From Deltaproteobacteria bacterium (GTDB lineage: Bacteria > Desulfobacterota > Desulfobacteria > Desulfobacterales > C00003060), in assembly GCA_019309815.1 (NCBI GenBank), contig JAFDFO010000004.1, positions 1-44,593 of the forward strand: a DNA stretch of 44,593 nucleotides, written 5' to 3'. The notes below the pieces were generated by a model, which was not told where the DNA came from, made no database searches, and saw nothing but the letters and a program-made list of their open reading frames with translations. The translations under genes were made by a program, and so were the position numbers. This document shows, piece by piece, positions 4,511-44,593 of this stretch (positions are counted from its first letter, which is position 1; each line of letters opens with the position of its first letter).

Positions 4511-4879
4511 TTAGTGACCGAACAGTGCTGCAATACTTTTCGACTGCGGATGTGCGTAAATCAAAATCAACGCAACAACCAGGGCGTAAATGACCAGGGA
4601 CTCGACCATAGCTAGACCGATCAACAAGGTCACAGTCACTTTACCCGAGGACTCAGGGTTTCTGGCAATGCCTTCAACCGCATTCCTGATGGCCCAACCC
4701 TGCCCGATAGCGCCTCCAAAGGCGGCTAAGGCGAGAGCGAAGCCGGCAGTGAACACTGATACCGTGAAGTACTTCAGGCCGGCCAGGCCAAGTTCATCAC
4801 CCGCTGCATAGGCCACTGTAGAAACGGCGCACAGCAAAAACACGGACGTTAGGGTTGAAAATGACAGTTTCTTGAACAT
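4511..4879 (-). CDS. atpE: F0F1 ATP synthase subunit c with a signal-peptide-like N-terminal extension
   Basis: The core [22 protein letters not shown]...[23 protein letters not shown] is the c-subunit hairpin with the carboxylate Glu. A strong SD (aaggaggaaag) precedes the ATG at 4879. The first 25 or so residues, [25 protein letters not shown], look like a signal peptide. Confidence 0.9.
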
Positions 4880-7767: not shown

Positions 7768-8006
7768 AAAGCACCAAATCACAAATTCCAAATAACTACT
7801 GTTCTCAAGGCGTCAGGCGCAACCGCGGCGCCAAAACACTAGAAGCCATCTCAAAAATCCCAATCTGGCTTCAGGGCCGAGACGGCAGACTAATTCCGGA
7901 GTGTTGGAGTACTGGAGTATTGGAGTGTTGGAGTGTTGGTTATAAAAAAAGCAGTTGTTCTTTCGTTCTTTTCCAGTACTCCATTACTCCATCACTCCAT
8001 TACTCC
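7768..8006. repeat. Composite repeat: conserved module (AAAGCACCAAATC..GTTCTCAAGGCGTCAGGCGC) plus a heptamer hairpin (GGAGTRT)n / (AYACTCC)n
   Basis: Left arm 7898-7939 is ggagtgttggagtactggagtattggagtgttggagtgttgg. Right arm 7973-8006 is ccagtactccattactccatcactccattactcc, its near reverse complement. The module at 7768-7820 recurs at 18190-18235 and, inverted, at 23301-23320 and 23527-23546. Confidence 0.8.
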
Positions 8007-8154
8007 CGCTCTTTGAGGCTTGCCGACAGGACTACCAAGCCTTAAATGTGTTTTTGAGATTAGGAATTTTTCAGTTAGATGACGGGTGGGTGCAAACTGG
8101 CAACAATGCGGATAGGGCAGAGATAGCCTTGTTTGGAAGTAGAAAGCGGGTCGT

Positions 8155-13964: not shown

Positions 13965-14349
13965 GGTTCTTCTCCAACTTAATTGGAGAAGAGGGTCCAA
14001 GGATTCCAGGGGTCAAGGATTCAAGGGTTTGTTTTCTAAAGACTTTGTAAGCGCTTTCAACATCCTTTCAATTTCCGCTATGTCTTTGTTTAGTGTGCCC
14101 AATTCACTTTTTTCAATGAAGCCCAAATCTCCTGCCAACAAAATCTTGGTTCCTTCTTTTGAATATTTCTTTGCTTTTCACTTAAGTCCTTGGACCCCCG
14201 ACCCCTTAGATCCTTCAGTAGTTTTTTGAGCATTTGCACTCGAACCCTTGAATCCTTGACCCCTTGAACCCTCTAGTATCACACCTGCTCAATTGGAGAT
14301 GACACACTTATTTTACCCTAATTAACTACAACTAATCGGGAGATGATCC
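13965..14349. mobile_element. MITE-like non-autonomous element, copy A (imperfect TIRs, 8-bp target duplication, internal long hairpin arms, four-helix-bundle gene remnant)
   Basis: The left end GGTTCTTCTCCAACTTAATTG matches the reverse complement of the right end, GGATCATCTCCCGATTAGTTG (15/21). It is flanked by a perfect direct repeat ATAGAAAC (13957-13964 and 14350-14357). The internal arms GGTCCAAGGATTCCAGGGGTCAAGGATTCAAGGG and CCCTTGAATCCTTGACCCCTTGAACCC are complementary. Confidence 0.6.
14013..14177 (-). pseudogene. C-terminal fragment of a four-helix-bundle protein (23S rRNA intervening-sequence protein family)
   Basis: The minus-strand open frame has no start codon. It translates as KAKKYSKEGTKILLAGDLGFIEKSELGTLNKDIAEIERMLKALTKSLENKPLNP*, which matches the usual C-terminus of this family (..LLLARDLGYI..EE...L....EEI.KMLNGLIKSL). 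Confidence 0.6.
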
Positions 14350-14503
14350 ATAGAAACAGGCTTCGAGACTGACTGAGAACCAGCCCACCGGAAACTCGCG
14401 CGGGCAAAGACGAACAGGCGGGATGTGTCTTAGTGGCAGTAAATGAGGAGTTGCAGCAGACGTTGCCGACCCCGGGCCTGTTAAAGATCACCGTGAACGA
14501 ACA

Positions 14504-19064: not shown

Positions 19065-19360
19065 GGTTCTTCTCCAATTTAGTTGGAGAAGAGGGTCCAA
19101 GGATTCAAGGGGTCAAGGATTCAAGGGTTTGTTTTCTAAAGATTTTATCAGCGCGGCTAACATTACAGTCGAAGATTCCCTGTTGCTTGCTGCAGGGAAC
19201 TTCAATATTTTTTTGCTTTTCACTTGAATCCTTGGACCCTCGACCCCTTGGATCCTTCAGTAGTTTTTGAACCCTTGAACCCTCTGAGATCACACCTGCT
19301 TAATCGGAGATGACACACTTATTCTACCCTAATTAACTATAACTAATCGGGAGATGATCC
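19065..19360. mobile_element. MITE-like element, copy B (shorter, more decayed)
   Basis: It has the same ends as copy A (GGTTCTTCTCCAATTTAGTT ... CTAATCGGGAGATGATCC). It is inserted immediately after the lemA TAA. The flanking 8-mers are AATTCTAA and AGTTCTGA (6/8). Only about 18 codons of the four-helix-bundle C-terminus remain (..VMLAALIKSLENKPLNP*). Confidence 0.6.
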
Positions 19361-19421
19361 AGTTCTGAGGGCTATCAGCTCAGGCCCCCCGCTGTAACTC
19401 CAACAAATTCGAAACAGACGG

Positions 19422-29456: not shown

Positions 29457-29584
29457 GGAATATTGGAATACTGGAATATTGATAAAAGATTCTTTTTGTT
29501 TTCCATCATTCCATCATTCCATTATTCCATCTTGCCCGCCGTAGGTTTACCGAAGGCGGGTACTCCATCACTCCATTACTCCAG
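29457..29584. repeat. Heptamer hairpin repeat inserted between znuC and znuB
   Basis: ggaatattggaatactggaatattg ... ttccatcattccatcattccattattccatc, then a GC hairpin gcccgcc..ggcgggt, then ctccatcactccattactccag. It occupies most of the 199-nt intercistronic gap. Confidence 0.8.
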
Positions 29585-29597
29585 TCTCCTATTGTAT

Positions 29598-30338
29598 TTA
29601 GAGTTCACACGTATGTTTCAGCATATGCACGGGCCCACCATAGCAAGCCTCAATCACATCCCCCGTGATTTTCTCCGTGGGGTTGCATACAAGTCGCCGG
29701 TTTATGCAGGCGACACGGTTCACGTAGGTAGAGATGAACCCCAGGTCGTGAGAGACGAGCATAATGGTAACCTTTTCGTTGAGCTTCTTCAGGAGGTGAT
29801 AGATGTCTTGCTCAACCCTGCCGTCAATGCTCGCTGTCGGCTCATCCAACAGGAGCAATTCGGGTTGCCCCACCAGCGCTCTGGCCATGAGAACCCGCTG
29901 CTGCTGTCCGCCCGAGAGCGTGCCAAAACGCCTGTTGCAAAGATCATAGATTTCAGTCTCGCGCATCGCCTCTTCCGCTGCCTGCCGATCGGTTTTCCGA
30001 TACCGCCCCAGCACAGGGGCCTGACCCAATCGGCCTATGAGCACCACGTCTGTGACACTGATGGGAAAGCTTGTGTCCAGGTTTGCGTGCTGAGGAACAT
30101 AGCCGATGAAGTGACGCCCCCGCTCCGGGGACTCGTCGAACACCCGGACTTTCCCCCTTGTTGGATGAATGAGGCCTAAGATAATCTTCAAAAGGGTTGT
30201 TTTCCCGCTTCCGTTCGGGCCAACCACACCAAGGAAATCACCTTCCTCAACAGTAAGGGTGATGTCCTCAAGAACGAGATTCCCGTCATAGGCAAAATCA
30301 ATGTGATCTACTTCGACAACTACTTTTTTCCGGCTCAT
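29598..30338 (-). CDS. znuC: Metal ABC transporter ATP-binding protein
   Basis: Walker A GPNGSGKTT, signature LSGGQQQR, Walker B LLLLDEP. There is a 4-nt overlap with znuA. Confidence 0.9.
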   Translation of the reverse strand: MSRKKVVVEVDHIDFAYDGNLVLEDITLTVEEGDFLGVVGPNGSGKTTLLKIILGLIHPTRGKVRVFDESPERGRHFIGYVPQHANLDTSFPISVTDVVLIGRLGQAPVLGRYRKTDRQAAEEAMRETEIYDLCNRRFGTLSGGQQQRVLMARALVGQPELLLLDEPTASIDGRVEQDIYHLLKKLNEKVTIMLVSHDLGFISTYVNRVACINRRLVCNPTEKITGDVIEACYGGPVHMLKHTCEL

Positions 30339-31249
30339 TGCAGCACCTCTGCAAAGATTTGAGCGATCTTCTTCATGTTGTTCAGATAGTCCCTGGCCAG
30401 GGGGTCGATTTGGATGACCCTCCCGCCAATGGCGTTTGCCACGGTAGCGGCACTCTTCTCACTGAACTGTTTCTGGACAAATATGACCTTGATCCCTTCT
30501 TTCCTCCCCTCCTTAATAACACGAGCGAGGCCTTTGGCCGTTGCCTCTTTGCCCTCAGTTTCAATCGGTATTTGCTCCAGGGCGTAGTCCTGGGCAAAGT
30601 ATCCCCAGGCCGGGTGAAAGACCATGAATTTGCGGGTTGCGTCGTTTTTCACGATCTCAGCGATTTCTGCATCCAGGTCATCCAGGTCATAGTGAAATGC
30701 TCTCAGGTTGTCCTGGTAGGAAGATTGATGAAGCGGATCCTCAGAGACAAGGGCTTCATAGATGTTTTGAGCTACAGTCCTGGTCAGCCTCAGGCTCAAC
30801 CAGATGTGCGGATCCTTCAAACCTCCGTTCTGACGCTCGGCTTGGAATCCGGCGTGATTATGGCCTTTCATGGACATGAGTCCGATGCCTTTGCGCGTAT
30901 CTACCACCTTCATGTCAGGATTTGCTTTGCTGATACGCTCCATCCAAACGTTTTCAAACGGCACACCGATGCGGAAGTAGAGTTTCGCTCTACTCAGTTC
31001 CGCCATCTGCTTCGGCATAGGTTCATAGGTGGCCGGGCTGTGCCCTGGACCAACCATAACAGAAACATCGACCCGCCCGCCGCCGACACGCTCCACAAAA
31101 TAGGCTTGGGGAAGAATGCTGACAAAGACCCTGATTCTCTCATTCGCATCATCTAAGGGCTCTGAACAAACCAGCGCGGCCTTTAACAAGGCTATGGCCA
31201 AAACAACGGCCAAGCAAAGCCCTGTCCGTATACGGCCCTTCCCTGTCAC
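30335..31249 (-). CDS. znuA: Metal ABC transporter substrate-binding protein (ZnuA/TroA family)
   Basis: Signal peptide, the DPHIWLS motif, and a His-containing loop (MKGHNHAGF). It sits at the head of the transporter operon. Confidence 0.9.
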   Translation of the reverse strand: MTGKGRIRTGLCLAVVLAIALLKAALVCSEPLDDANERIRVFVSILPQAYFVERVGGGRVDVSVMVGPGHSPATYEPMPKQMAELSRAKLYFRIGVPFENVWMERISKANPDMKVVDTRKGIGLMSMKGHNHAGFQAERQNGGLKDPHIWLSLRLTRTVAQNIYEALVSEDPLHQSSYQDNLRAFHYDLDDLDAEIAEIVKNDATRKFMVFHPAWGYFAQDYALEQIPIETEGKEATAKGLARVIKEGRKEGIKVIFVQKQFSEKSAATVANAIGGRVIQIDPLARDYLNNMKKIAQIFAEVLQ

Positions 31250-36714: not shown

Positions 36715-36759
36715 GGTAGGAATCTCACGACCTCCTGTTCACTCAAGGCACAAAGAAAA

Positions 36760-36840
36760 GGAGTATTGGAGTACTGGAGTATTGGAGTGTTGGTTTTCTT
36801 CCTCATTACTCCATCACTCCAATACTCCATTACTCCAATC
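36760..36840. repeat. Heptamer hairpin repeat (GGAGTAT)n / (ATACTCC)n
   Basis: ggagtattggagtactggagtattggagtgttgg - 11-nt loop - attactccatcactccaatactccattactccaatc. Same family as 7898-8006 and 29562-29584. It lies between the cupin stop and the AKR start. Confidence 0.8.
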
Positions 36841-36853
36841 GAAGCTGTGGCTT

Positions 36854-37189
36854 CTATTGATGACCATGGCCGCGACCCGAATGCCCCCCAGAGATGACGT
36901 AGATACCCTCTTCCCCGGAGTTGTTCTCAAGCATGCAGGTTTCATCACCCTTTAAATGGATAGCCTCCCCTTCTCTCAGCAACCCCCAGGCGTCCCCTGA
37001 AACCGAGAAATCCCCCCTCAAGGCAAGGATGAGCTCTTCGTGACCCTTTCCGGGTTTGAGTTTTCTCCCTTTCTCGTGCGGCTGCATCACGCCATAAATC
37101 AGATAGCAGGCATGGCTCCCAGTAGCGTCAACACCAAGAATGTATTCGCCGGAATCATCAACTTTCTCTCTCACTTCAAAGGGCTTCAT
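36854..37189 (-). CDS. Cupin-domain protein with a His-rich C-terminus
   Basis: 111 aa with a beta-barrel-like pattern (G.HEELILALRGDF...GEAIHLKGDE) and the tail GGHSGRGHGHQ. It starts 19 nt after the radical SAM stop, with a GAGG SD. Confidence 0.7.
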   Translation of the reverse strand: MKPFEVREKVDDSGEYILGVDATGSHACYLIYGVMQPHEKGRKLKPGKGHEELILALRGDFSVSGDAWGLLREGEAIHLKGDETCMLENNSGEEGIYVISGGHSGRGHGHQ

Positions 37190-37208
37190 TTTTTCACCTC
37201 ATTGCAAA

Positions 37209-38750
37209 TCATGTATTTTCCATTACACCATAAAGGGCGCACATGACCGGGTCTTTCCCCAAAAGGCCTTCCGCTCGGAATCGACATCCCCCCTTACAAT
37301 CCAGAAGATGGGAGCAGGAGGCGCATTCCAGATTGCTGAGGGAAACAGGGCGTATCCGCTTCCAGGAGGTCTCGAGCCCGTCTTTCAAGGAGCCCAAAGG
37401 CTTATCGAAAAAGCCGCACTTCAGAACAGCCCCCTCCGGCGTGACCGTGCACAGATGATACCCGCAAGCAAAGGGCTCATCCGCACCGTGATAGCTCCCC
37501 CCGGTAGCATATCTCAGAAAAGGGGCTGCTTCCTCCGGGGTTGGTAAGAAATCTAAGTTCTCCAGCAAACGGCCTGCAATACAAGGGACATCTATGCTCC
37601 ATTCAAGGACTTCTTGATCCCCAACCCATTTGGCCAGAGTTTCGAATTCTTCGAGGTTGTGGCGGTGCACCATGGTCGCAATCGAAATCGGGATCCCCTT
37701 TTCCCGGACCGCATCCATGCCATCCACCACAGTGTCAAAAGTCCCGGCGCCTCGTATCCGTTCGTGCCCTTTCTGGAGGCCGTCTAAGCTGAATTGGATT
37801 TCGTCAAAAAGGCACCAATCCGCATGGTTTTTCCTGCTGATCATGGTCCCGTTGGTCAGTAGAACCTTGCGCACCCCATATCGCGGCAGGACCGCGTTCA
37901 ATGCGCGAAGCTCAGCATACATGAGCGGTTCTCCGCCCGAGAAAAGCACCCTCAGCCCCTGCATTTGCTCAAATTCTTCCAGCACGGACAGCACTGCAGC
38001 CAGGGGCAAGTCTCTCTTTGTTGGTTCCCCCAGGTAGCAGTGTCCGCATTTCAGATTACATCGGCTGGTCAACTGAAGTTCAAGATATCTCAGGGAAGGA
38101 ATCGGAGATGGCCTGAGCTTGAAATGGCGCAAGTCCTTCCGAGGTCCTATGACAAGAAGGCCCTCTTTGAGACAGGTTTCCAGAAACTCCTTGTTAAAAG
38201 GGAACTCGGCCAGTTGCCTGCTCCCGTTGCATGCTGTCAGGAACTCAAATCCCTGCTGGTCCAGCTCGTACAGCTCGTCATTGGTTATGTCATACAAGTA
38301 CGGGCTTTCAAGATGCCTGAGAACACAATCATCTCGCAGGGCAATGTATCCCTGCTCAGAGATCAACGTCTCAGCCAGCTGGTTTTCGTGCATGATCGAA
38401 TGTTCAAGGAGGAGATCCGCTGCGATGTACCCGCCGCAGGGAAGAGGATCGCCGGTGCAGTTGGGATCTGTGAAATCACATCCATCAACGAGGAAATCAC
38501 AACGCTTGCACAGGGCATGGTACAGCAGGTGATGATAACAGTCTTTAAACGCGTAGCTCTGCTTTGGGCGAAGAGCGGCCAGGATGGCGGGAGTTTGACT
38601 ACTCAGGCGCTGGAAAAACTTGAAGCCCTCGCACGCTGTGTCTTCTTCCCGATCGGGTTTGTAGTAGGAACAGTACCTACTGCACACAGCTTCAACGACA
38701 AAGGCTTCCCTACTATTCATCCTTGGATTACAATGTCCTGCGGAGACCAA
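37209..38750 (-). CDS. Radical SAM / SPASM-domain enzyme with a PqqD-like (RRE) segment and a Cys-rich N-terminal extension
   Basis: CxxxCxxC is present at LTSRCNLKCGHCY. The SPASM motif CASCSHLLDCKGGC (CxxCx5Cx3C) has upstream CGYHLC..LKCGFF and a downstream C. The segment LYDITNDELYELDQQGFEFLTACNGSRQLAEF...FLETCLKEGLLVI resembles PqqD-type peptide-recognition elements. There are 9-10 Cys in the first 110 or so residues. The start is either TTG 38750 or ATG 38720. Confidence 0.85.
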   Translation of the reverse strand: MVSAGHCNPRMNSREAFVVEAVCSRYCSYYKPDREEDTACEGFKFFQRLSSQTPAILAALRPKQSYAFKDCYHHLLYHALCKRCDFLVDGCDFTDPNCTGDPLPCGGYIAADLLLEHSIMHENQLAETLISEQGYIALRDDCVLRHLESPYLYDITNDELYELDQQGFEFLTACNGSRQLAEFPFNKEFLETCLKEGLLVIGPRKDLRHFKLRPSPIPSLRYLELQLTSRCNLKCGHCYLGEPTKRDLPLAAVLSVLEEFEQMQGLRVLFSGGEPLMYAELRALNAVLPRYGVRKVLLTNGTMISRKNHADWCLFDEIQFSLDGLQKGHERIRGAGTFDTVVDGMDAVREKGIPISIATMVHRHNLEEFETLAKWVGDQEVLEWSIDVPCIAGRLLENLDFLPTPEEAAPFLRYATGGSYHGADEPFACGYHLCTVTPEGAVLKCGFFDKPLGSLKDGLETSWKRIRPVSLSNLECASCSHLLDCKGGCRFRAEGLLGKDPVMCALYGVMENT

Positions 38751-38795
38751 ACCAGATCTTTGGCCTGCAAGGTTTCGTTTCGTCGGGTAATAGAA

Positions 38796-38864
38796 TCAGC
38801 AGGAAGTCTTACACTTGCAAAGACCTTTTTTGATCTTTCTTACTTTTCTGATCTTCACTGACAT
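38796..38864 (-). CDS. Candidate 22-aa Cys-rich peptide (possible precursor): MSVKIRKVRKIKKGLCKCKTSC
   Basis: Unannotated small ORF read from the sequence, with gaaagggga directly upstream of the ATG and an in-frame GTG two codons in. It ends 45 nt before the radical SAM ORF. No homology evidence. Confidence 0.25.
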   Translation of the reverse strand: MSVKIRKVRKIKKGLCKCKTSC

Positions 38865-38923
38865 TCCCCTTTCTATTGAGGCGTGAATGGAGTCAGGACC
38901 TCGGAAATCGCCTGCAAGTCCTG

Positions 38924-39196
38924 TCAGTCTTGGCGGAGCATGAATCCAATTGCGGCCAAAAGAACAATCGCAAGGCCAAACCCAAAATAGGCTGCATCAA
39001 AATAGTTCAGGTTTTCGATTTCAGCTCCAACAAAGAGCTCTCGATTGGACACATAACCCCAGTACAGTGCAAAGAGGTAATTAACAAGAAGTGCCAGTCG
39101 CAACCTCCCAGCAAAAAGCGCCAGGGTGTTAAAGGCCAGGAGCATCGCAACGTGGAGAAGCGGCACACTGAGTGGCATCATTATCCAGGCTCCCAT
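38924..39196 (-). CDS. Small hydrophobic protein (90 aa, about 3 TM segments)
   Basis: The ATG at 39196 has a GGAGGG SD. The sequence is MGAWIMMPLSVPLLHVAMLLAFNTLALFAG...FGFGLAIVLLAAIGFML. The ORF-track N-terminal 166 residues are translated repeat DNA. Confidence 0.55.
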   Translation of the reverse strand: MGAWIMMPLSVPLLHVAMLLAFNTLALFAGRLRLALLVNYLFALYWGYVSNRELFVGAEIENLNYFDAAYFGFGLAIVLLAAIGFMLRQD

Positions 39197-39339: not shown

Positions 39340-39745
39340 AGGGCCTGCCCTGCTTGCCTGCAGTGAGCTTGTTTATCCTGAGCCTGCCGAAGGGCCTGTC
39401 CCGAGCTTGTCGAAGGGCCGAACTGCCTGCGGTGAGCCTGTCGAACCGTCCCGCCGCCCTGTCCGCCATAGCTTCGGCGAAGGCGGAAGTCTTGACGTAG
39501 GCGGAAGCTTTATGCAAAGGTAGAAGCTTGCTTGCCCTGAGCCTGCCTGTCCTGAGCGAAGTCGAGGGGCCTGTCCTGAGCGAAGTCGAGGGGCCTGTCC
39601 TGAGCGAAGTCGAGGGGCCTGTCCTGAGCGAAGTCGAGGGGCCTGTCCCGAGCTTGTCGAGGGGGTCGAACCGTCCCGCCGACCTGTCCGCCATAGCTTC
39701 AGCGAAGGCGGAAGCTTTGTGCGAAGGCGGGTCGAAGGGTCCGTG
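39340..39745. repeat. GC-rich mosaic repeat cluster (CCTGAGCCTGCC / GTCGAAGGG / GCGAAGGCGGAAGC modules)
   Basis: The modules ctgccctgcttgcctg..gtgagcttgtttatcctgagcctgcc and gtcttgacgtaggcggaagc recur at 42551-42720 and partly at 33960-34050. Direct repeats of about 80 nt (39398-39498 vs 39642-39719) flank the tandem array. Confidence 0.75.
39546..39665. repeat. Tandem repeat: 24-bp unit CCTGTCCTGAGCGAAGTCGAGGGG x4 perfect plus 1 degenerate copy
   Basis: Units at 39546, 39570, 39594 and 39618 are identical. A fifth copy at 39642-39665 is diverged (cctgtcccgagcttgtcgaggggg). Confidence 0.9.
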
Positions 39746-41269: not shown

Positions 41270-41944
41270 ATGCTTATTACAGCATCTGAAGAGTTTTATC
41301 AGGATGGCGACATCATAATTGAGGAGGGTTCTTCAGGAGACTGGGTCTACGTGGTCAACTCAGGGACCGTGGAAATTTCTAAGACGATTGACGGGAAGAA
41401 ATATATTGTGGCAAGGCTTGGGCCGGGTGAAGTTTTTGGAGAACTCGGTTTCTTGGGAAGTGTTCCACGGACTGCCACGGCGCGGGCTATTGGTGAAACT
41501 TCCGTTGGGATTCTTGATCGAACATACTTGGATACCGAATACAATAGGCTCTCTTCAGAGTTCAGGACCGTTCTCAGTGCCCTGGTCAAAAGATTCAAAC
41601 AGATGAATGATCGAGCCGTCGAGTATACATCGCGCAAAGAGTTCCGAACCCAGAAGACCTTGTCCCTGAACTATGCAGACAGGGCGGCCTTTGTCGATGC
41701 GCACACAGAGAACGTGGGAACCAGGGGTCTCTTCATCAGGACCGACAATCCATTCGAAGAGGGTGAACAGTTTCTGCTCGAACTCGTATTGCCAGGCCTT
41801 CCAAATACTATGGAAATCAAGTGTGAAGTGGTGTGGGCAAGGAAACAGGGGGAAGAACCGGGCCAGGCAAATGGAATGGGGGTCAAATTCGTTGAAATTA
41901 CAGAAGAAGATGAACAGACACTGAAGGATTATCTTAGTCCTTAG
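41270..41944 (+). CDS. Cyclic-nucleotide-binding domain + PilZ domain protein (paralog 1)
   Basis: CNB: GDIIIEEGSSGDWVYVVNSGTVEI...FGELGFLGSVPRTATARA. PilZ-like: RKEFR (RxxxR) ... ENVGTRGLFI ... MEIKCEVVWAR...GMGVKF. Confidence 0.8.
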   Translation: MLITASEEFYQDGDIIIEEGSSGDWVYVVNSGTVEISKTIDGKKYIVARLGPGEVFGELGFLGSVPRTATARAIGETSVGILDRTYLDTEYNRLSSEFRTVLSALVKRFKQMNDRAVEYTSRKEFRTQKTLSLNYADRAAFVDAHTENVGTRGLFIRTDNPFEEGEQFLLELVLPGLPNTMEIKCEVVWARKQGEEPGQANGMGVKFVEITEEDEQTLKDYLSP

Positions 41945-42083: not shown

Positions 42084-42485
42084 ATGGAAGAGAAGAAAGA
42101 AGGCAGAAGACACCAACGATACCAGGTTCCGGAAGGTTCGTTTGTTACCCTTGGTCCAAGCAATTCCATACTGGGTCAAATTCTAGATATCAGCATGGGT
42201 GGGCTTGCATTTCGCTATATCAACTCCCAGCCCGATGGGCCTACAGACCAATCATATTTGGACATACACTTGACAGAGGGTGATATGTGCCTGGGTAGAG
42301 TACCAATAAAGGCCGTTTCAGACCTGGAAACACCTGACACGGTTACATGTAAAGCAGATGGACCATTGCCGGTCAGCTGCAGAGCCATGAGACGATGTGG
42401 CGTACAATTCGGTGAAATGACCCAGGGCCAGATATCCCAGCTGGCAAGTTGTATCCAAACCCAAACAATCGGAGGGCTGCCTTAA
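42084..42485 (+). CDS. Stand-alone PilZ-domain protein
   Basis: Canonical RRHQR (RxxxR) and DISMGG (DxSxxG) motifs; 133 aa. Confidence 0.8.
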   Translation: MEEKKEGRRHQRYQVPEGSFVTLGPSNSILGQILDISMGGLAFRYINSQPDGPTDQSYLDIHLTEGDMCLGRVPIKAVSDLETPDTVTCKADGPLPVSCRAMRRCGVQFGEMTQGQISQLASCIQTQTIGGLP

Positions 42486-42550: not shown

Positions 42551-42720
42551 GCCTGTCCTGCCTGTCCGACGGAGTCTTGACGTAGGCGGAAGCGAAGCCT
42601 AAGGGTCTGCCCTGCTTGCTTGTGGTGAGCTTGTTTATCCTGAGCCTGCCTGTCCTGAGCCTGCCTGTCCTGAGCCTGTCGAAGGGTCGAAGGGTCGAAC
42701 TGCCTGCGGCGGTTCCACAA
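42551..42720. repeat. GC-rich mosaic repeat (same family as 39340-39745)
   Basis: gtcttgacgtaggcggaagc, ctgccctgcttgcttgtggtgagcttgtttatcctgagcctgcc, (ctgtcctgagcctgc)x2, and gtcgaagggtcgaagggtcgaac. Confidence 0.7.
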
Positions 42721-42866: not shown

Positions 42867-43004
42867 TTAGAAGACTTTAGAACTGTGGATGGACACGAAG
42901 TGTGCGCATGAAAGACGAGTTGATGTTACACCAAGAACAAACCCTCAATGCAGGGAGAACATTTGCCGGCGTTGTCCTGCAAACTTTCATGGGAGAGTCT
43001 TGCT

Positions 43005-43679
43005 ATGCTTCCTACAGTAGCTGAAGAGGTTTATCCCGATGGCAAGACTATCCTTGAGGAGGGCACGTCAGGAGACCGGGTCTATGTAGTCCGCTCCGGT
43101 ACTGTGGAAATTTCCAAGACGATTAAAGGAACAAAGTGTATCATCGCAGAGATTGAGCCCGGGGACGTATTTGGGGAACTCAGTTTTTTCGAAGGTGATA
43201 GACGGACTTGCACGGCGCGGGCTGTTGGTGAAACTTGCGTTGAGATTATTGATAGCGCATATTTGAATAGTGAATTCGGCAAGCTCTCTCCAGAGCTGAA
43301 GGCCATTTTCGAGGCCCTGGTAAAGAGATTCCAACAGACGATTGATCGAGCCATCGAGTTTTCATCACGACAGGAGGCTCGAACCCGCAAGGCCTTGTCA
43401 CTAAAATACGCAGACAAGAAGGCCTTTTTCGATGCGCGCACAGAGAATGTCGGTAGCAGTGGCCTTTTCATTAAGACCGAAAATCCATTCCAGAAGGGCG
43501 AGCAGTTTCTGCTCGAACTACAATTACCAGGTATTCCAGATCCCCTGAAAGTCAAAGGCGAAGTGGTATGGGCAAGGAAAAAGGCGGGAGAAACGAACCC
43601 GCCCAATGGAATGGGAATCAAGTTTGTTGAAATTACGAAAGAGGATGTACAAACACTGAAAGAATATATCAATCAATAG
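43005..43679 (+). CDS. Cyclic-nucleotide-binding domain + PilZ domain protein (paralog 2)
   Basis: About 60% identical by eye to 41270-41944 over the full length (MLPTVAEEVYPDGKTILEEGTSGDRVYVVRSGTVEISKTI... / ...GMGIKFVEITKEDVQTLKEY). The ATG at 43005 with a gggagag SD is preferred over 42948. Confidence 0.8.
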   Translation: MLPTVAEEVYPDGKTILEEGTSGDRVYVVRSGTVEISKTIKGTKCIIAEIEPGDVFGELSFFEGDRRTCTARAVGETCVEIIDSAYLNSEFGKLSPELKAIFEALVKRFQQTIDRAIEFSSRQEARTRKALSLKYADKKAFFDARTENVGSSGLFIKTENPFQKGEQFLLELQLPGIPDPLKVKGEVVWARKKAGETNPPNGMGIKFVEITKEDVQTLKEYINQ

Positions 43680-44479: not shown

Positions 44480-44593
44480 GGTTCTTCTCCAATTTAGTTG
44501 GAGAAGAGGGTCCAAGGATTCAAGGGGTCAAGGATTCAAGGGTTTGTTTTCTAAAGACTTTATCAGCGCCGTTAACATTTTTTCGATTTCTGC
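44480..44593. mobile_element. MITE-like element, copy C (left end only; truncated by the window edge)
   Basis: GGTTCTTCTCCAATTTAGTTGGAGAAGAGGGTCCAAGGATTCAAGGGGTCAAGGATTCAAGGGTTTGTTTTCTAAAGAC is nearly identical to copies A and B. Confidence 0.6.
44528..44593 (-). CDS. Four-helix-bundle protein (23S rRNA IVS protein family), 3' end only; the gene continues beyond the window
   Basis: The minus-strand frame reads ...AEIEKMLTALIKSLENKPLNP* with the stop at 44528-44530. It is homologous to the fragment at 14013-14177, and whether it is intact cannot be judged. Confidence 0.5.
   Translation of the reverse strand, partial: AEIEKMLTALIKSLENKPLNP

Follow-up and report, generated by a model that had tools for sequence, protein, structure and literature searches.

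Does a Cys-rich open reading frame (ORF) of some 20 codons, lying in front of a radical S-adenosylmethionine (SAM) enzyme gene, encode the substrate of an uncharacterised peptide-modification system? The question is raised by a cassette at positions 36854-39196 (minus strand) of a 44,593-nt stretch of DNA, hereafter the window, from contig JAFDFO010000004.1 of assembly GCA_019309815.1 (Deltaproteobacteria bacterium). An earlier note, made from the DNA letters without database searches, had described here four co-directional ORFs (for a small membrane protein, a Cys-rich mini-ORF product, a radical SAM/SPASM enzyme and a cupin) and had suggested that they might form a new system for modifying a ribosomally made and post-translationally modified peptide (RiPP). 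All four are present in the ORF listing of the window, tightly spaced on the minus strand. Our comparison of this locus with its relatives shows that the peptide gene and the enzyme gene are conserved neighbours across phyla, in either order, and the central inference of the note not only holds but is strengthened by this conserved linkage. The explanation that we favour, and consider rather probable, is that of a compact ribosomal-peptide modification system in which an enzyme combining a probable RiPP recognition element (RRE), a radical SAM core and a SPASM domain would act on a 20-residue substrate, the favoured product being a Cys-centred thioether.

A conserved 20-codon gene adjoins the radical SAM gene

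The comparison set consisted of 86 loci: the window and 85 fetched loci, 5 of which came from exact-protein look-ups and 80 from a pattern scan of genomes with an alignment of the enzyme family, the latter being 80 of about 565 or more genome matches to that alignment. Peptide genes were sought with a strict regular expression (C.C..[STA]C-stop, six frames, 85 loci and the window) and with a profile built from the peptides so found and run over the 86 loci. In all loci the ORFs lying within 5 kb of the enzyme were clustered, and tblastn was used for the neighbours of the window. Loci with enzymes of about 500 aa are referred to as long-form and those with enzymes of about 380 aa as short-form. 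The gene at the centre of the question is the following.

38796-38858, minus strand: gene for a precursor-like peptide, GTG start, 20 codons and a stop codon, product MKIRKVRKIKKGLCKCKTSC

Read from the ATG at 38864, the mini-ORF (38796-38864) has the 22 codons that the earlier note had counted. The ORF is real, its length less so: the GTG at 38858, giving 20 aa, is the most likely start on sequence grounds, because the homologous peptide genes (68 distinct sequences) all have 20-21 codons and because the Shine-Dalgarno sequence AAAGGGGA lies 6 nt before this GTG but abuts the ATG at 38864. A Shine-Dalgarno-like motif precedes 67 of the 68 genes.

The profile search found a peptide gene adjoining the radical SAM gene, on the same strand, in 71 of the 86 loci, which is the genetic linkage typical of RiPPs, a short precursor gene beside the gene of its modifying enzyme, and which bears out the proposed membership of the mini-ORF in the system. 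The pair occurs in Desulfobacterota, Nitrospirota, Chloroflexota, Actinomycetota, Nannocystaceae and Ca. Methanoperedens. The strict expression gave no match away from a radical SAM gene, and all of its matches lay on the strand of the enzyme. Fifteen loci yielded no peptide match in the profile search, several of them ending at a contig edge at the expected position of the gene.

The peptides are 20 residues long, with one extra C-terminal residue in Ca. Methanoperedens and a few others, and conform to the consensus M-K/T-I-K/R-K-V-x-K-x-x-x-(G/T)-(L/T)-C-K-C-K-x-S-C. Cys14, Cys16 and Cys20 are invariant in all 68, and Ile3, Lys5, Lys15 and Ser19 are each kept in 67. At the invariant residues the codons vary synonymously (TGC/TGT, AAG/AAA, TCC/TCT/TCG/TCA/AGC). 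Since the amino acids are conserved while the codons change, selection acts on the protein sequence of the peptide, and the mini-ORF, which lies far beyond chance expectation, is a real, conserved gene.

Being very short, Lys-rich and located only 75 nt before the enzyme gene in the window, the mini-ORF might at first sight have been taken for a chance ORF, for an upstream regulatory ORF or attenuator, or for part of a structured RNA. We give these readings next to no credence. The pattern of conserved amino acids and synonymous codons speaks against all of them, no Rfam family matched over the mini-ORF or the spacer, and shuffled sequence folds as well as the peptide-enzyme spacer (z = -0.29). 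The position of the gene also speaks against them. In long-form loci, mostly from Desulfobacterota, roughly 70-100 nt separate it from the enzyme gene that follows; in short-form loci (Nitrospirota, Chloroflexota, Actinomycetota and most Methanoperedens) the enzyme gene comes first, with the peptide gene 10-150 nt downstream of it. This placement, upstream of the long enzymes and downstream of the short ones, rules out a leader ORF or attenuator. To the extent that sequence analysis can decide, the chance ORF, the leader ORF and the RNA element are all refuted.

With no more than 20 codons in its putative substrate gene, the peptide system escaped annotation. A collection of about 15 billion predicted proteins contained none of ten versions of the peptide, the peptide had no Pfam or NCBIfam match, and full-text searches with peptide strings returned no paper, nor did topical searches return anything relevant, in the openly searchable literature, outside which subscription-only papers lie. 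The compendium paper PMC10288494 contains no mention of the taxon and feature terms tried for the peptide system. The same blank was met for the Cys-rich domain and the cupin family described below, of which, as of the peptide family, Pfam, NCBIfam and the searchable literature (again with subscription-only papers outside it) hold no trace. The 20-codon gene is, in effect, invisible to standard annotation.

Several loci carry variants of the arrangement. In loci L090 (4554-4619, minus strand) and L091 (716-781), the peptide gene, with product MKIKKVLKRVSLTCKCKSSC, follows a 377-aa enzyme, and the public gene call over it in L090 is a wrong-frame 35-aa ORF (4531-4638). Tandem peptide genes are found in L035 (7673-7753 and 7785-7919), differing at one core position (CKCKSSC vs CKCHSSC), and two copies occur within L052 (1731-1820 and 3174-3263). 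The closest genome relative, L007, has a variant peptide, MKIRKVKHHLNGHCECKGSC (7856-7927), the only one of the 68 in which Glu replaces the Lys that stands between the first and second Cys.

An RRE-like segment, a radical SAM core and a SPASM domain in one enzyme

The enzyme gene and the domains of its product map as follows.

37209-38720, minus strand: radical SAM/SPASM enzyme, 503 aa from ATG 38720 (in the ORF listing 37209-38750, from TTG 38750)
38370-38720, minus strand: N-terminal Cys-rich helical domain, enzyme residues 1-117, about 115 residues
38136-38360, minus strand: RRE-like (PqqD-type winged helix) segment, residues about 121-195
37587-38105, minus strand: radical SAM core, residues about 206-378, CxxxCxxC being C221, C225 and C228
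37233-37586, minus strand: SPASM domain, residues about 379-496, with C380, C419, C435, C466, C469, C475, C479 and C494

The ATG at 38720 is most likely the start, because homologues of 500-507 aa begin at this position, and the length first given for this real ORF, 513 aa, is revised to 503 aa. More than 2500 homologues were found, the full-length relatives sharing 40-90% identity. Two of the domain assignments of the earlier note are straightforward. The CNLKCGHC motif (38037-38060) belongs to a radical SAM motif that is invariant in 68 aligned homologues, and PF04055 (Radical_SAM) matches with E = 8e-21 and 75 bits against a cut-off of 29.5, which places the enzyme in the radical SAM superfamily. 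The SPASM motif is complete, the set C419-x10-G430-x4-C435, C466-x2-C469-x5-C475-x3-C479 and C494 being invariant in the 68 homologues and C380 nearly so; TIGR04085 (SPASM) scores 32.8 bits on the C-terminal 134 residues, above its cut-off of 27, and the Pfam model PF13186 has no match to the enzyme of the window.

The third assignment, a PqqD-like RRE before the core, fared unevenly. Profile evidence is weak: PF05402 (PqqD) matches 5 of 20 homologous segments, with a best E of 7e-4, and a profile of the segment found nothing significant among PDB sequences. The fold, on the other hand, supports it. An AlphaFold2 model of the enzyme built from 68 sequences (mean predicted local distance difference test score, pLDDT, 89.5) consists of a helical part (1-120), a sheet with helices (125-192), a partial TIM barrel and the SPASM region, and the RRE-like segment is modelled as a small beta-sheet followed by helices (E125-152, H155-163, H177-185). 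From its predicted fold and position, the presence of an RRE in the enzyme is probable.

The best solved relatives of the model in Foldseek searches are SkfB (6efn) and SuiB, followed by anaerobic sulfatase maturase (anSME), viperin, PqqE and MoaA. The alignment to SuiB spans 447 columns, the whole of this RRE-core-SPASM protein; that to anSME has TM-scores of 0.48/0.61 and, at about 4 Å, the lowest root-mean-square deviation (rmsd) of these top matches in fold. Sequence-profile searches of the PDB put SkfB, BlsE, PqqE, CteB (5wgg) and anSME first, over the core only.

Assignment of the enzyme to a named radical SAM family was tried and rejected. It reaches no NCBIfam equivalog cut-off, the best families scoring 57-89 bits against cut-offs of 265-650. 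The best-scoring equivalogs are NirJ2 (89 vs 500 bits), ScmE, AhbC (79 vs 650), NirJ (77 vs 515), StsB (NF045574; 77 vs 625), GeoRSP, WgkB, MftC (TIGR03962; 69 vs 265), SbtM (TIGR04082; 63 vs 350) and PqqE (TIGR02109; 56.7 vs 381), and neither the SCIFF-maturase nor the anSME models are among the 25 best families listed. The enzyme thus stays outside the characterised non-peptide families whose membership would have spoken against the proposal of the earlier note.

That the heme-d1 and heme-b enzymes NirJ2, AhbC and NirJ stand among the top-scoring matches nevertheless raises the possibility that the substrate is a protein or a cofactor intermediate, as for NirJ, AhbC/D or anSME, and that the peptide is an independent metal-binding or regulatory small protein which merely shares the operon. 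Some loci have no peptide nearby and no protease or exporter is conserved, both of which would fit such a reading. The heme-enzyme matches, however, cover the generic core only, with 77-89 bits against cut-offs of 500-650; an RRE-like domain precedes this core; and neither heme nor sulfatase genes recur in the enzyme neighbourhoods. Across phyla and domains of life, the peptide and enzyme genes have stayed adjacent although their order has been rearranged. We regard a non-peptide substrate as improbable.

A second, shorter radical SAM (SPASM) gene is present in two loci, after the cupin gene in L001 (9191-10333) and between the main enzyme and the cupin in L044 (9471-10442).

The enzyme is always accompanied by a Cys-rich domain

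The Cys-rich N-terminal domain of the enzyme is a conserved component that the earlier note had missed. Its conserved Cys pattern reads C13-x3-C17 ... C30 ... C71-x2-C74-x6-C81 ... C95. Enzymes of about 380 aa do not contain the domain, and a separate gene or a mini-version is found instead, so that the domain always accompanies the enzyme, whether fused to it, encoded separately (often divergently) or as the mini-version. The stand-alone version is a gene product of about 100-130 aa. Its gene and the start of the enzyme gene overlap in L005; in Nitrospirota it is usually divergent, 70-170 nt upstream of the enzyme. The mini-version, of about 55 aa (C-x2-C-x-F-Y-K-E ... E-C-G-A-Y), is encoded directly upstream in Methanoperedens, Chloroflexota and some deltaproteobacteria.

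A search of the full library with the N-domain of the window returned 165 representatives, nearly all of them stand-alone proteins of 95-150 aa and a few fused N-terminally to radical SAM enzymes. Two other fusions were found. In protein P0319 (L090, 6001-7425) the domain is C-terminal on a response regulator-PAS-HisKA_3 protein, and this fusion is, in L090 and L091, the divergent neighbour of the 377-aa enzyme and its peptide; the flanks in L090 encode rubrerythrins, a ferredoxin, a flavodiiron protein and a desulfoferrodoxin-N protein. Read from its sequence, the fusion gives a hint that the Cys-rich domain may serve in sensing. In P0344 (L088, 6001-7251) the domain is C-terminal on a class II aminoacyl-tRNA-synthetase-like catalytic domain (PF00152); this gene lies beside a NIL-ferredoxin gene, with no maturase nearby. 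Searches with the N-domain gave only scattered noise in Pfam at E <= 10 and nothing in a PDB profile search.

The cupin is a frequent partner and the other neighbours are not

38924-39196, minus strand: 90-aa hydrophobic protein upstream of the peptide gene, last in-frame ATG at 39196
36854-37189, minus strand: single-domain cupin, 111 aa, with GGHS and a His-rich tail; frequent accessory gene
36751-36844, no strand assigned: long hairpin built from 8-nt units (GGAGTATT), with a U-rich run after it on the minus strand

Conservation of neighbours among the homologues separates the four ORFs of the cassette: the small Cys-rich ORF is kept, the cupin is frequent and the membrane protein is not kept. 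Of 85 loci, 25 have a cupin gene close to the enzyme, usually directly downstream, among them 22 of the 39 long-form loci; it is not obligate, however, and occurs elsewhere in genomes. By observation it is a frequent, non-obligate accessory partner. Its 124 homologues are all of about 110 aa and none has a specific name. Residues H26, C28, H50, E51, E52 and H103 are invariant, and an AlphaFold2 model (pLDDT 92) superimposes on the Mn-cupin TM1459 with a TM-score of 0.73; judged by this model, the 111-aa protein is a genuine small cupin. The cupin of the window has no Pfam match; Cupin_2 matches the copy in L004 weakly and is recorded for protein P0238.

The 90-aa membrane protein has no family match, and tblastn over the 85 loci found a homologue only in the closest relative, L007 (58% identity, same position); it is probably a lineage-specific neighbour and not a core component. 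The aldo/keto reductase that follows the cassette, whose membership had been left undecided, recurs only in L030 among the 85 loci. With each found in one other locus only, both the membrane protein and the reductase were rejected as parts of the system. Between the cupin and reductase genes lies the hairpin, an inverted repeat with 29-nt arms that are 93% complementary, which folds stably as RNA (-48.2 kcal/mol, z = -8.1). Together with its U-tract it separates the reductase from the cassette, and it marks the 3' boundary of the cassette and probably ends the transcript. Copies of the hairpin at 7890-8014 and 29488-29590 identify it as a dispersed palindromic intergenic element with units GGAGTAYT or their complement, and such elements yield spurious ORFs (e.g. 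...NTPILQYSNTP...).

When the ORFs lying up to 5 kb from the enzyme were clustered in all loci, neither a protease nor an exporter nor another tailoring enzyme proved to be conserved. Besides the cupin and the Cys-rich protein the clustering brought out lineage-specific synteny: rubrerythrins, a tetratricopeptide repeat lipoprotein and a 2-oxoacid oxidoreductase. Rubrerythrin, flavodiiron protein, rubredoxin, glutaredoxin and desulfoferrodoxin genes are recurrent oxidative-stress neighbours, an association that may in part be plain Nitrospirota synteny.

Some further features of the window were recorded. GC-rich intergenic repeats at 39340-39720 and 42600-42700 include a 24-nt unit present five times at 39545-39664, with related 15-nt and 49-nt units 3.2 kb away, and give long spurious ORFs (...LRTGPSTSLRTGPSTS...) upstream of the membrane-protein gene. 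Beyond the cassette, the plus strand encodes two paralogous cyclic nucleotide-binding and PilZ proteins and a stand-alone PilZ protein (41270-41944, 42084-42485, 42948-43679), the paralogues containing a 300-nt direct repeat of 75% identity. The strand of the cassette also bears, about 6 kb away, a ZnuA-type periplasmic zinc-uptake gene (30335-31249), with no evidence of linkage. At 13965-14350, 19065-19361 and 44480-44593 there are further repeat families, 95-114 nt long, whose copies share 79-92% identity.

A proposed route to a Cys-centred product

In the mechanism that we propose, the basic, beta-prone N-terminal half of the peptide (M-K/T-I-K/R-K-V-x-K) would serve as a very short leader, docking as a beta-strand on the winged-helix RRE. 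The CxxxCxxC cluster would reductively cleave SAM, and the resulting 5'-deoxyadenosyl radical would take a hydrogen atom within the C-K-C-x-x-S-C core, the auxiliary cluster of the SPASM domain handling the Cys thiolate and the electron. As in sactipeptides and ranthipeptides, the likeliest product would carry at least one intramolecular thioether, in which the sulfur of a Cys is joined to a carbon atom belonging to Lys, Ser or a residue nearby. Thioether formation is most likely by analogy with related enzymes and from the peptide sequence. Since aromatic residues are missing from the peptide core, Trp/Tyr cross-linking is excluded, as are Lys-Trp, cyclophane and Tyr-decarboxylation chemistries. 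In the Cys-rich domain a bound metal or Fe-S centre is probable, and the domain may feed electrons to the enzyme or hold the peptide; our guess at its role extends from electron transfer through peptide handling to sensing. The cupin probably binds a metal and may act on, or with, the product in some lineages.

Cys chemistry of a different kind must be weighed against this proposal. anSME abstracts a hydrogen atom from the C-beta of Cys, and the present enzyme might do likewise and oxidise Cys, by way of a thioaldehyde to formylglycine as in anSME or to a thio- or seleno-oxazole as in SbtM; the product would then be putatively metal-binding and the cupin its metal partner. SbtM provides a precedent: acting on a short peptide, it turns Cys or Sec into a thio(seleno)oxazole (PMC9204691). 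Its model TIGR04082 aligns with the enzyme core at profile positions 201-359, and the low rmsd to anSME points the same way. The C-x-C and C-terminal Cys motifs of the peptide, the His-rich tail of the cupin with its invariant His, Glu and Cys, and the frequent proximity of rubrerythrin, flavodiiron protein, rubredoxin and desulfoferrodoxin genes would all suit metal handling. Against this stand the score of TIGR04082, 63 bits where 350 are required, the position of the anSME models outside the 25 best families listed, the lack in most lineages of the Gly-Cys motif of SbtM directly before the Cys, and the lack in the peptide of the sulfatase motif C/S-x-P/A-x-R. Cys oxidation is accordingly a possibility that we hold to be unlikely, if less so than a non-peptide substrate.

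SCIFF peptides are thought to act inside the cell, in a housekeeping-like manner. The peptide described here may also do so, because export and processing genes are missing from its neighbourhoods, because it is very highly conserved and because oxidative-stress genes adjoin it. A more speculative extension, to which we give a low probability, is that the peptide gives rise to an intracellular factor conserved in anaerobes (a peptide-derived metal-binding or redox-active cofactor, or a signal) and not to an antibiotic-type product, with the Cys-rich domain as the binding or sensing module of that factor. If true, this would explain why the domain occurs fused to the maturase, stand-alone or, in one lineage, on a response regulator-PAS-HisKA_3 protein encoded divergently from the maturase-peptide pair, and why the loci lie amid rubrerythrin, flavodiiron, rubredoxin and desulfoferrodoxin genes.

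A number of observations do not sit easily with the thioether-forming peptide-modification system that we prefer. About eight loci with full flanks have no peptide detectable nearby by the profile search of the 86 loci. PF05402 does not match the RRE-like segment of the window itself. The arguments for a thioether come down to the composition of the peptide and the nearest relatives of the enzyme. The cupin is often encoded elsewhere in the genome, in unrelated contexts, or absent. Lastly, the response regulator-PAS fusion, as far as one may guess, fits a role of the Cys-rich domain in sensing at least as well as one in electron transfer.

Conserved as it is in Desulfobacterota, Nitrospirota and as far as Ca. 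Methanoperedens, the system seems to have a physiological role in anoxic groundwater and sediments and not that of a strain-specific antibiotic. A precursor of 20 codons paired with a radical SAM/SPASM maturase is too short for gene callers to report, and conserved genes of fewer than 30 codons beside radical SAM enzymes can be found by mining. New Cys chemistry, or a new factor derived from a peptide, could come to light in this system.

Comparison with known peptide-modification systems

One of the systems to be compared is SCIFF/CteB (ranthipeptides), which is widespread in anaerobes, highly conserved and without a dedicated protease or exporter nearby. The present system shares all three traits, as well as the pairing of one short Cys-rich precursor with one radical SAM-SPASM enzyme, which in the present case has a probable RRE. 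It differs in its peptide, of 20 residues with three Cys, whereas SCIFF has about 45 residues with six Cys; in the extra Cys-rich N-domain of its enzyme, which reaches no sactipeptide or ranthipeptide cut-off; and in its occurrence in Desulfobacterota, Nitrospirota and archaea, compared with Clostridia for SCIFF.

Sactipeptide maturases such as SkfB form thioethers from Cys. SkfB is the best match of our enzyme by both sequence profile and fold (6efn), with about 18% identity, but it has a twitch domain in place of a full SPASM domain, and its precursor is much longer and unrelated to the 20-residue peptide. SuiB, which makes the Lys-Trp cross-link of streptide in SuiA, has the three-part RRE-core-SPASM architecture that is probable for the present enzyme too; the present peptide, unlike the Lys-Trp substrate of SuiB, has no aromatic residue.

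The pyrroloquinoline quinone (PqqA/D/E) and mycofactocin (MftA/B/C) systems resemble the one described here in their very short precursors (PqqA has about 23 aa), in the combination of an RRE (here a probable one) with a radical SAM-SPASM enzyme and in a housekeeping-like distribution. The present peptide has neither the Glu...Tyr pair nor the C-terminal Tyr of those precursors, and the other genes of the two pathways were not found near the system. The SPASM enzyme anSME lacks an RRE, and its target is the sulfatase motif C/S-x-P/A-x-R, which is absent from our peptide.

SbtM, found in Geobacter and Desulfobacteria, has about 516 aa, including an N-terminal extension of about 200 residues (PMC9204691). 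Like the enzyme of the window it is a deltaproteobacterial radical SAM/SPASM protein of about this length with a long N-terminal extension, and it acts on a short peptide, on Cys or Sec, as the present enzyme may do on Cys. Its precursor belongs to a different family, and the peptide gene described here has no selenocysteine signal.

On the evidence of sequence models, the system is one that works like SCIFF/CteB, PqqA/D/E and SbtM and that belongs, by hidden Markov model definitions, to none of them. Radical SAM/SPASM peptide maturases are an already known kind of enzyme; what sets the present family apart is the pairing of such an enzyme with a 20-codon precursor and with a Cys-rich domain that has no known relative.

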